From an uncultured Chloroflexia bacterium (GTDB taxonomy: Bacteria; Chloroflexota; Limnocylindria; Limnocylindrales; CSP1-4), in contig CAVVYR010000001.1 in NCBI GenBank assembly GCA_963752475.1, positions 197,934-261,933 on the forward strand: a stretch of DNA of 64,000 nucleotides, read 5' to 3'. Every line of letters begins with the position of its first letter. Position 1 is the first letter of the stretch. Shown one piece after another: positions 14,119-15,748 of this stretch. Under the pieces are notes generated by a model that worked only from the letters and a program-made list of their open reading frames with translations, had not been told where the DNA came from and ran no database searches. Made by a program: the position numbers and the translations under genes.

Positions 14119-14156
14119 CGCTTCGAGGGGCGGTCGAGCTCCGCCTTGCTCCTATG

Positions 14157-15215
14157 TCAAGCGGCGAGCGTGACGGGCCATGTCGCAGCGACCCCAGTGG
14201 CACGTTCGTCTGCCTGGAGATGGCGGAAGACCACGTCGGAGAGCCGCCGCCGCAAGAGGCGCAGGGCCTCGGTCTTGGTGGCACCGGCGGCAATGCGGCC
14301 CTCGACGTAGGCGCGTCCGTCGTCGCCCACGCCCCGCAACTGGGTGACCGCGATCCGGTGCAGCGCCGCGTTGACCTGACGGTTCCCGCCGCGGCTCAGT
14401 CGGTACCTGGGGCTGTCGCCGGACCACACGGGGATCGGCGCGGTCCCGTTCCAGCGGGCGAAGGCGGCCTTGGAGCGGAAGCGGCCCACGCCGGCGGCCT
14501 CGCCGACGATCTTGGCCGCCGAGAGCGCGCCGCAGCCGGGCAGCGCGAGCAGCGAGGGCGCCAGGCGACGCACGATGCCGGTGATCCGGGCCTCGAGCTC
14601 GTTGGCCCGACGGGTGGACTCCCGGCAGCGGACCACGAGTTCACGAGCGATGTCGGCCACGGGGCCCGCGACGCCAGCGAGGCGCTCGTCGAGCTCATCG
14701 AGGACATGCTGCCGACGCAGGGCCTTGGGCGGGATCTCGAGTCCCGGGAAGAGTTCGTGGAGGTGCCAGCGTAGCCGGCTCTGCATCCTCGTCCGCTCGG
14801 CCACGAGGTCCTCGCGGTGATCGACGAGGAGGCGCAGCGCACGGGCCTCGCCGTCGAGACGAGCGACCGGGAGCTCCGGCTCGCGGAGGGCGGCACGAGC
14901 GACCGCCAGGGCGTCGATCGGATCGGACTTGCCTCGCTCGCGGCCATTCCGGCGGGCCTCGGCCATGAGGCGGGGCGGCACCCGGACCGCGGCCTCGCCA
15001 GCCCGCAGGAGATCGACCTCCAACCGGCGCGTCAGGTGCCGGCAGTCCTCGACCGCGAAGAGGCGCTCATGCCACTGCGCCGCCCACTCGACGGCCTGGA
15101 GATGGCCGTCAGGCGTCGCCGCGACGGTCCTCTCGGCGAGCCTGCGCCCCGCCCTATCGATGGCTACGAGCGTGTGGGTGCGCTTGTGCGCGTCGACTCC
15201 GATGGTCACTCTCAT
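14157..15215 (-). CDS. IS110-family DEDD (RuvC-like) recombinase/transposase
   Basis: IGVDAHK, AVED, GKSDPIDA; Tnp domain LPGCGALSAAKIVGE, GTAPIPVWSG (catalytic Ser), RGGNRQVNAALH; GGGAGG RBS. Confidence 0.95.
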   Translation of the reverse strand: MRVTIGVDAHKRTHTLVAIDRAGRRLAERTVAATPDGHLQAVEWAAQWHERLFAVEDCRHLTRRLEVDLLRAGEAAVRVPPRLMAEARRNGRERGKSDPIDALAVARAALREPELPVARLDGEARALRLLVDHREDLVAERTRMQSRLRWHLHELFPGLEIPPKALRRQHVLDELDERLAGVAGPVADIARELVVRCRESTRRANELEARITGIVRRLAPSLLALPGCGALSAAKIVGEAAGVGRFRSKAAFARWNGTAPIPVWSGDSPRYRLSRGGNRQVNAALHRIAVTQLRGVGDDGRAYVEGRIAAGATKTEALRLLRRRLSDVVFRHLQADERATGVAATWPVTLAA

Positions 15216-15249
15216 CCCGGACCTCCCTCTATGTTCTCTCGACGAAGCG

Positions 15250-15410
15250 TCGCGGGCCGGACGGGGACACGCCTTTCTCGAGGTCTCGACCAGGCTCCTA
15301 TCAAGTCACTCCGAGCGGCCCGACTGCGCCCGGCAGGTGGCACAACGCGGAGAAGTTACGGGCCGATGCGGCCGGGGACAGCGAAGAAACGAGCCAACCT
15401 GCCGGGCAGC
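15250..15410 (-). ncRNA. predicted IS110 bridge RNA with target-binding and donor-binding loops
   Basis: two stem/internal-loop modules in the left non-coding end; loop segments match target flanks (TTTCTTCGC; CTCCGC) and element ends (ATAGGAGC; AGAAA). Confidence 0.85.
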
Positions 15411-15427
15411 GCCGACGATGACAGAAA

Positions 15428-15748
15428 CGCGAAGAAAGCCGATGCGCTCTTGAGGATCTCGTTGGCCCGCCGCAGCTCGCGGTTCTCCCGTTCGAGCTCC
15501 TTGAGGCGCTCGGCCTCTTCGCTGGTGGTGCCGGGGCGATGGCCCCGGTCGATCTCGGCCTGGACGACCCAGCGGCGCAGGGACTCGGGGCCGATGCCCA
15601 GCTCGTTCGCGATGCGGGTGATCGTGCCGAAGCGCTCCTCGCCCCGGTCGTACGAGTCGAGGACCATGCGGATGGCCCGGTGCTTCAGCTCGGGTGGGTA
15701 CTGACGCGGGCTGGACCGCCCGGTGCTGCTGCTGTCGTTGTCAGCCAT
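15428..15748 (-). pseudogene. IS3 OrfA (HTH); the last codons AELDRPSKR* lie at 14144-14115 beyond the IS110
   Basis: RQYPPELKHRAIRMV, IANELGIGPESLRRWV, ELERENRELRRANEILKSASAFFA. Confidence 0.9.

Follow-up and report, generated by a model that had tools for sequence, protein, structure and literature searches.

What placed an intact IS110-family element inside the coding sequence of another insertion sequence (IS), exactly at a codon boundary, and is its landing site written in an RNA that the element itself encodes? These questions are raised by positions 14145..15427 (minus strand) of a 64,000-nucleotide (nt) stretch of DNA from an uncultured Chloroflexia bacterium (contig CAVVYR010000001.1; the whole stretch is called the window here), where a 1283-base-pair (bp) element interrupts orfA of a decayed IS3-family element. 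Since 2024, IS110 elements have been known to encode bridge or seek RNAs (PMC11208160, PMC11187229), and an initial annotation of this DNA had suggested that the element carries such an RNA, with guides directed against the IS3 copy in which it resides. From comparison with relatives, we conclude that this is very probably an intact IS110-group insertion sequence whose 212-nt left end encodes a two-loop bridge RNA guided to the end of IS3 orfA.

The boundaries of the element were set by alignment with relatives and were confirmed by an exact pair of empty and filled sites in the genome of one relative (G001). There, the same IS3 element is found both empty (locus L043) and filled (L020), with flanks that are identical at 200/200 and 199/200 positions and with no duplicated base. 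The empty site reads ..GGCTTTCTTCGCC|CGGGAGACC.. and the filled site reads ..TTCGCC[TTTATG...GGAGCAAG]CGGGAGACC... This pair demonstrates that insertion occurred exactly between an Ala codon and the next codon, with nothing duplicated and no crossover base shared. In the window, the 3′ end of orfA is interrupted at the codon boundary FFA|AE, and the element there has neither terminal inverted repeats nor a target duplication. Because G15428 belongs to the IS3 Ala codon, the insertion boundary of the initial annotation was corrected to 15427..14145; the edge of the element is ambiguous by one G, in the window only. A degenerate, uninterrupted relative elsewhere in the window's own genome reads ..CTCTTCACGGCGGAGCTCGACC. 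Furthermore, contigs from two public metagenome runs directly join both IS3 halves at the insertion point; these contigs come from mixed communities and do not distinguish excision from copies that were never occupied.

The transposase gene (14157..15215, minus strand) is intact and encodes 352 amino acids. Upstream of it lies the non-coding, bridge-RNA-encoding left end of 212 nt (15216..15427, minus strand), and its stop codon is followed by only 12 nt to the end of the element. This right end (14145..14160, minus strand) consists of an outward TTGACA (14160-14155) that overlaps the stop codon, then the left-donor sequence and a final 3 nt, AAG. The outward TTGACA is conserved and could act as the −35 box of a circle-junction promoter, such as has been described for IS621 (PMC11208160) and ISEc21 (PMC11187229); by-eye inspection of the abutted junction found weak candidates only, and no convincing −10 box, downstream of it.

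The product of the gene matches Pfam PF01548 (DEDD_Tnp_IS110, the N-terminal RuvC-like domain) with E = 2.5e-26 over profile positions 1-155 of 155, PF02371 (Transposase_20, the C-terminal domain) with E = 1.6e-16, and the NCBIfam equivalog model NF033542, named ‘IS110 family RNA-guided transposase’, with 166.6 bits against a cut-off of 140. In an alignment of 35 full-length relatives, at least 94% retain each of D8, E56, D98 and D101, and 91% retain S265, which is part of a WSG motif; these five positions are candidate catalytic residues. The DEDD spacing resembles that of IS621, for which D11, E60, D102, D105 and, further along, S241 are reported (PMC11208158); S265 is a candidate equivalent of S241, by motif position only.

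Read on the minus strand, the left end presents two predicted modules, each of which holds two guide segments. The target-binding module (15328..15407) carries the left target guide TTTCTTCGC (15381..15389), which has the same sequence as the IS3 top strand immediately to the left of the insertion (15429-15437), and the right target guide CTCCGC (15347..15352), which is complementary to GCGGAG just right of it (14139-14144). The donor-binding module (15253..15322) carries the left donor guide ATAGGAGC (15294..15301), identical to the right end of the element (14148-14155), and the right donor guide AGAAA (15274..15278), complementary to TTTCT at the start of the left end (15423-15427). All guides in the window are perfect (9/9, 6/6, 8/8 and 5/5). 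Beside each right guide there is a further short segment. In the target loop this is a handshake-like GTTG (15343..15346; reverse complement CAAC), which matches the last bases of the right end, CAAG in the window and CAAC, CATC or CTTC in relatives. In the donor loop it is a GGCG 3′ of the right donor guide (15270..15273; reverse complement CGCC), which resembles the last 4 nt of the left target (CGCG). The eight sequence statements of the initial annotation on the positions of guides, flanks and ends, including the 212-nt left end, all read correctly on the minus strand, and the order and strand sense of the guides match the published IS621-type scheme of left target, right target, left donor and right donor guides, as had been claimed.

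The left target guide sequence TTTCTTCGC is found at just these 2 places in the 64-kb window, where 0.09 are expected, and 1/100 shuffles reach 2. For the left donor guide ATAGGAGC, there are 3 places compared with 0.79 expected, and 3 is reached in 6/100 shuffles; the third of these (17606-17613) forms the right end of another relative, which is broken.

A minimum-free-energy fold of the single left-end sequence yields both modules, and the comparison of relatives supports them. RNAalifold, given 50 distinct sequences, returns the same two modules with 33 pairs, of which 24 show at least one double compensatory change. The target-binding module occupies alignment columns 10-92 and has an outer stem (15397-15407 / 15328-15338), an internal loop and an inner hairpin; most of the 13 pairs of its outer stem show compensatory changes. 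The donor-binding module (columns 102-172) has an outer stem formed by 15316-15322 and 15253-15259. The guide segments are located in the internal loops of both modules in this consensus. Thus, the two-module fold of the initial annotation stands in both of its main parts, and one detail of it does not: the conserved inner hairpin of the second module is GGU-N4/5-ACC, whereas the TCGAG/CTCGA hairpin proposed earlier is specific to the window and overlaps the right donor guide.

If the left end encodes guides, changes in guide sequence among relatives should be mirrored by changes in the matching DNA. A protein-seeded scan gave 20 loci from genome records, all of them metagenome-assembled genomes (MAGs) labelled Acidimicrobiia/Actinomycetota or Chloroflexota, and 68 loci from metagenome contigs, which together with the window make 89 sequences. 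The conserved donor-loop motif is present in 63 of these, and the 26 others are contig-end fragments or relatives mostly below ~55% identity. After removal of L060, L062 and L088 (cut 5′ of the motif) and of L071, L083, L097 and L110 (left end not placeable), 56 sequences remained (33 of 89 dropped), which represent 51 distinct junction-plus-guide combinations. Agreement was compared with that in 20000 shuffles of partners among distinct insertions, which preserve column make-up and ignore relatedness among elements.

The left target guide agrees with flank positions −10..−2 at a mean of 8.24 of 9 positions (n = 49), compared with 7.40 after shuffling, and the match is 9/9 in 30 and 8/9 in 14 of the 49 insertions. 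For the right target guide and positions +1..+6, the mean is 4.26 of 6 (shuffled 3.41; n = 35). The right donor guide fits the first five bases of the left end at a mean of 4.84 of 5 (shuffled 3.75; n = 51), with 5/5 in 45/51, and mirrors the left-end variants TTTCT, TTTAT, TTCAT, TCAGT, TGTAT, GTTGT and CTTAT. The target-loop handshake, meaning the three bases after the right target guide compared with the last three of the right end, has a mean of 2.71 of 3 (shuffled 1.94; n = 35) and is complete in 25/35 junctions, where AAC, ATC, TTC and AAG co-vary with the right end. None of the 20000 shuffles reaches the observed mean in any of these four comparisons. In 35/35 relatives with a right junction, the left donor guide has exactly the sequence of the right end; being invariant, it shows no covariation.

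The left target departs from TTTCTTCGC in 24 insertions; the guide has the identical 9-mer in 13 of these and keeps the consensus sequence in 5. Re-aimed guides that agree with the new flanks include TTTTTTCGC, TTTCTTCGG, TTTCTTTGC and CTTCTTCAC, as well as ATGAACCGGC in L099 and TACCATCCG in L122. These results demonstrate that guide and target sequences, and guide and donor sequences, have changed together.

Among 52 left flanks of at least 60 nt, 43 match the OrfA protein of the window with 32-100% identity (tblastn, E up to 1e-3), and in 42 of these 43 the alignment extends as far as the codon that precedes the same Ala codon; on the other side, 29/37 right flanks match the N-terminus of OrfB. 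The claim that the guide specifies the 3′ end of orfA is therefore borne out by the flanks. The IS3 hosts comprise at least two orfA-end types, FFA|AELDR.. and FFA|(K/R)ETR*, and a hairpin lies 3′ of the site in both.

The host element in the window (13189..15800, minus strand) measures ~1329 bp without the insert and has imperfect inverted repeats (13188-13216 / 15773-15801). Its domains are HTH_Tnp_1 in orfA and HTH_21 plus rve in orfB, which is in the −1 frame, and it matches NF033516 (IS3 family transposase). It is a decayed member of its family, because orfB is broken by a frame change and divided between 13717-14118 and 13229-13846; no clear target duplication was found flanking it. The left target (15429..15437, minus strand) lies in the orfA codons A-F-F-A. 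The right target GCGGAG (14139..14144, minus strand) is the first stem of the ALIL frameshift pseudoknot of the host (14044..14144, minus strand; Rfam RF01497, 77.9 bits compared with a gathering score of 50, E = 2.4e-19). The Rfam match itself spans 14044-14150, and its first 6 nt are the right end of the IS110 element, aligned by chance to the leader of the model. The consensus 5′ leader of the ALIL model encodes the same A-(F/Y)-F-A codons that are found across the insert. Thus, the insertion separates the leader of the IS3 frameshift signal from its first stem, and the element lies at the 5′ boundary of the pseudoknot.

This shared address could in principle be inherited, if one ancestral composite of an IS110 element inside an IS3 element had spread as a unit, such that the apparent preference for IS3 is not target choice. 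The window and a 96%-identical twin from a MAG labelled Chloroflexia (L014:3571-3700) agree in all guides and in the 30 nt of left flank nearest to the element, and a composite might be mobilized in trans by IS3 transposase. The left flank of this twin is the same IS3 orfA, and its right end borders on unrelated DNA, in which a tRNA-Leu(taa) gene lies at a distance of 40 nt; the right half of the IS3 element is missing there, which could be due to a deletion or to one-sided (half-matched) recombination at the right end. However, spread as a unit is contradicted by the hosts, whose OrfA proteins are 32-100% identical to that of the window while the IS110 proteins are 63-96% identical, and which include at least the two orfA-end types described above. 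Moreover, L019 and L020 are identical elements in IS3 copies without similarity beyond 11 nt, the isogenic empty site of the latter exists, and guide changes match flank changes. We therefore consider that inheritance of a single composite is a highly improbable source of the pattern, and prefer repeated, guided choice of the orfA end.

Nine left flanks do not match OrfA (L029, L082, L074, L101, L102, L080, L024, L027 and L099). Two of these elements, L029 and L082, reside in a DDE (rve) transposase gene at DFFT|VET and have the matching guide CTTCTTCAC; the best score for this gene is with the IS481 model and is below its cut-off. The flanks of L074, L101 and L102 are degenerate or short and still bear the target motif, and L080, L024, L027 and L099 are not assignable to a flanking gene context. 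A more distant element, L122, with 65% DNA identity, interrupts a transposase gene of the IS481 family between model positions 226 and 228 (PYHP|TQGKVER), and its guide TACCATCCG is identical to its flank.

The re-aimed elements bear directly on whether the target is read mainly by the protein or through a neighbouring DNA or RNA hairpin, in which case the RNA matches would be secondary or would be captured copies of the target. A hairpin is indeed located directly 3′ of the insertion point in both IS3 end types (GGCGGAGCTCGACCGCC and CGGGAGACCCG), the matches of the right target guide are loose, and a preprint describes a ‘sequence-structure dual-match’ for another IS110 element (10.64898/2026.03.19.712850). 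Against this, L099, L122 and L029/L082 have wholly different left guides at wholly different sequences, with matches at 9 or 10 of 10 positions. The guide segments also hold the same loop positions within a structure that is kept by compensatory changes, and an RNA-guided mechanism has been demonstrated experimentally for IS621 (PMC11208160) and ISEc21 (PMC11187229). Recognition that depends chiefly on protein or hairpin is thus unlikely, and recognition by the RNA guides is the reading that we retain.

Several observations nonetheless weigh against this reading. Because the shuffles ignore relatedness, their counts are not probabilities. The left target guide matches at 7 or fewer positions in 5/49 insertions, and the misfits include L101 and L102, whose flanks contain indels, L099, which is one base out of register and gives a perfect 10-mer if slid, and L027, whose guide does not fit. 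The right target guide is loose in relatives, with 6/6 in only 4/35 junctions, 5 matches in 10, 4 in 13 and 3 or fewer in 8. The donor-loop handshake, which compares four bases with the last four of the left target, has a mean of 2.78 of 4, close to the shuffled 2.68, and 430/20000 shuffles reach it (n = 50). The fold of the left end in the window is no more stable than that of shuffled sequences (z = 0.43; the sequence is GC-rich), such that the window alone does not prove the structure, for which the support is the comparison of relatives. When positions 13000-17000 were searched against Rfam 15 with cmscan (E up to 1), ALIL was the only match, and it is uncertain whether this release contains a bridge-RNA family. 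Similarly, phmmer reached none of the solved structures (E up to 0.001), and kinship of the protein with IS621 thus rests on Pfam and NCBIfam profiles only. Among the listed public runs that hold this stretch, none is on record as RNA. There is also no core dinucleotide common to donor and target, given that the crossover is GCC|CGG in the target and GCAAG|TTTATG in the donor of the empty/filled pair. Finally, the genome to which the window belongs has one copy of the element, in a decayed IS3, and this particular copy may therefore no longer move.

This last point can be taken further: the element might be a dead relic that arrived once in an IS3 copy that has since decayed, with guide matches that record a past event and with nothing active now. 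In addition to the single copy in a 4.25-Mb, 38-contig assembly, the split orfB of the host and its lack of a clear target duplication fit this view, a second relative 2 kb away is a broken remnant, and a circle junction was not found in Logan contigs of four public runs. These contigs are short pieces with 90-99% likeness, from mixed communities; they cannot show expression and drop rare variants, so that the missing junction is uninformative. On the other hand, the transposase frame is open over 352 amino acids with its candidate catalytic residues conserved, and all guides are perfect. A relative that is 79% identical (G001) has two copies that are identical at 1276/1276 positions in IS3 elements sharing only the 11-nt target, together with the exact empty paralogous site, from which it follows that the clade has moved recently. 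There is thus good evidence for recent movement in the clade, and for the copy in the window the relic account is a possibility to be taken seriously, short of a probable one.

Copy numbers are low elsewhere as well, with 1-2 full copies in the genomes of five relatives. The proposal of the initial annotation that other IS elements serve as a ‘multi-copy safe harbour’ is not supported by these numbers. The genomes of these five relatives contain 14 OrfA-like places, of which 6 are occupied, 3 are empty with a left target that has at most one mismatch, and 5 have divergent motifs.

The absence of a shared core sets the crossover apart. In the IS621 scheme, each loop's 3′ side pairs with the top strand over 4-7 nt, and the core dinucleotide is part of all four pairings (PMC11208160). 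Handshake bases, which lie next to the right guides, then pair with the other DNA after exchange of top strands that are cut just 3′ of the core (PMC11208158). In the present clade, targets have CG, CC, CA or GG as the last two bases ahead of the crossover, and donors have AC, AG or TC; the final three bases of left flanks are GCG, GCC, GGG, GCA or ACC, and right ends finish with AAC, ATC, AAG, TTC or GAC. A shared core cannot be created by sliding the boundaries in the G001 empty/filled pair. A ‘GC core’ model, in which both left guides end in GC, was also rejected, as the junctions that it predicts are not observed. The loop bases that face the would-be core fit only the incoming partner, and all placed junctions have target bases on the left and donor bases on the right. 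This uniform arrangement is the one expected if the top strands define the product, and would fit top-strand-only transfer. For another IS110 element, a preprint reports integration ‘predominantly through top-strand insertion’ (10.1101/2025.10.25.684509).

These features can be combined into a proposed mechanism. The 9-nt segment of the target loop that is identical to the IS3 top strand left of the insertion would pair with the bottom strand, and the 6-nt segment would pair with its complement in the top strand on the right, while the donor loop would use its 8-nt copy of the right end and its 5-nt complement of the left end in the same manner. In the target loop, the 3′ strand extends beyond the 6-nt segment into bases that fit the incoming right end and that could form a handshake-type pairing. 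Together with such an RNA, the DEDD/Ser transposase would take the junction at which right end and left end abut, in a circular or copied-out form, and recombine it with TTYTTCGCN|NNNGAG, which encodes FFA|xE at the end of IS3 orfA, at the 5′ edge of the hairpin that stimulates frameshifting. Insertion is always in the sense orientation with respect to orfA, such that transcription begun at the IS3 promoter would extend into the bridge RNA and transposase gene, and read-through of this kind could express both. Because the insertion parts orfA from orfB and the frameshift signal, the host IS3 should not make a fused transposase in cis.

A broader model is offered tentatively, as a possibility. 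Elements of this clade would be bridge-RNA-guided parasites of other ISs, with guides that have repeatedly drifted among conserved codon blocks of DDE transposases (FFA|xE of IS3 orfA, DFFT|VET in an IS481-like rve gene and PYHP|TQGKVER of the IS481 family). Integration would be free of a core, with a 3-4-nt handshake and top-strand junctions, and sense insertion would let the promoter of the host feed the guide RNA and transposase while the host transposase is silenced. The description of the element as a hyperparasite of ISs in the initial annotation fits the observations; sister lineages have been re-aimed at IS481-type transposase genes.

Other observations were made on the relatives and on the neighbourhood of the element. 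A sub-lineage (L024, L027, L028, L030, L074, L084, L085, L090, L092 and L100-L103) has an extra hairpin of ~35-40 nt between the start of the left end and the target-binding module. Two of its members, L024 and L027, are from the same MAG and reside in non-coding DNA with the repeated motif AGGGCAC(N)2TTTGCA on both sides; the guide of L024 fits its flank at 8/9 positions, and that of L027, which has reverted to the IS3 type, at only 5/9. A relative of the bridge-RNA region (L124, G004:C3:828390-828598) is 68% identical over 212 nt and has a different left guide, CTAAACCGGA, with a flank fit of ~7/9.

In the window, the remnant of a second related IS110 element lies at 17400-17617 (plus strand) and consists of a C-terminal transposase fragment, 73% identical over 95 nt, and the right end GCCGCTTGACATAGGAGCAAC. 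It stops 2 nt before the ATG of a gene for a PIG-L family deacetylase (17619-18380); its GGAG is ~8 nt upstream of this start codon, and its TTGACA is directed into the gene. A piece of 119 nt at 16883-17001 (minus strand) shares 85% identity with the host IS3 in its orfB part. With this orfB fragment and the IS110 remnant, the 4 kb beyond the IS3 element represent a graveyard of IS pieces. On the other side, a gene for an EamA-family transporter (11418-12359, plus strand) adjoins the IS cluster.

For specialists, the main interest of this clade lies in its lack of a shared core combined with uniform top-strand junctions, and in its repeated re-aiming among transposase genes. The former two features bear on an open dispute over whether IS110 integration proceeds through a Holliday junction or by top-strand transfer. 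With respect to re-aiming, some fifty independent pairs of guide and target constitute a clean natural data set, and demonstrate that the re-aiming of bridge RNAs can be read directly in the genomes of uncultured members of Actinomycetota and Chloroflexota. The IS3 nucleotides that are most conserved, those of the orfA end and the frameshift hairpin, act as a landing pad. As a tool, the element would add one more orthologue, from a GC-rich host and with a core-independent site rule, if this rule holds experimentally.

Among known systems, the closest in architecture is IS621, the IS110-group bridge recombinase (Durrant 2024, PMC11208160; Hiraizumi 2024, PMC11208158). Both elements combine DEDD and Ser domains and have a long non-coding left end upstream of the gene, a short right end and scarless insertion. 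In both, the target loop is 5′ of the donor loop, and the guides have the same order (left target, right target, left donor, right donor) and the same strand sense. In each loop, the 5′ strand has the top-strand sequence of a left half (9 and 8 nt here) and the 3′ strand is complementary to a right half (6 and 5 nt here), and handshake-type bases 3′ of the right guides match the other partner, plainly in the target loop and only weakly in the donor loop here. Unlike IS621, the present element has no core shared by donor and target; the bases at the core position fit the non-cognate partner only, as part of a 3-4-nt handshake, and the junctions all have the top-strand arrangement. The target also differs, being a coding sequence in another IS here and a REP element for IS621.

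Specialization on other mobile elements is shared with IS4321/IS5075 and with attC-targeting IS1111 members, which are DEDD-transposase elements directed to conserved sequences of such elements (PMC11208160, PMC11187229). These differ from the present element in that they belong to the IS1111 group, with the non-coding region downstream of the gene and with subterminal inverted repeats, and in that their targets are transposon ends or attC sites and not the coding sequence of transposases.

The nearest precedent for the target is ISEc21 (Siddiquee et al. 2024, PMC11187229). This member of the IS110 family is directed to a conserved coding stretch of IS3 transposases, at the DDE motif's second D. 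The novelty that the initial annotation attached to the targeting of ISs was therefore overstated. Our literature searches returned this case and no account of an IS110 clade with guides to the end of orfA and the frameshift site, and the supplementary target lists of PMC11208160 and PMC11187229 may already include the clade. According to the description of ISEc21, its guide RNA also derives from the upstream non-coding region, with the bottom-strand match preceding the top-strand match, and it likewise inserts in IS3-family transposase genes without duplication; in ISMch6, a natural relative of ISEc21, guide and target have been altered together. Compared by description, the present clade differs in its address, FFA|xE at the end of orfA near the frameshift signal, and in its occurrence in MAGs of Actinomycetota and Chloroflexota. 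Taken together with ISEc21, it suggests that IS110 elements recurrently aim at transposase genes that belong to other IS families.

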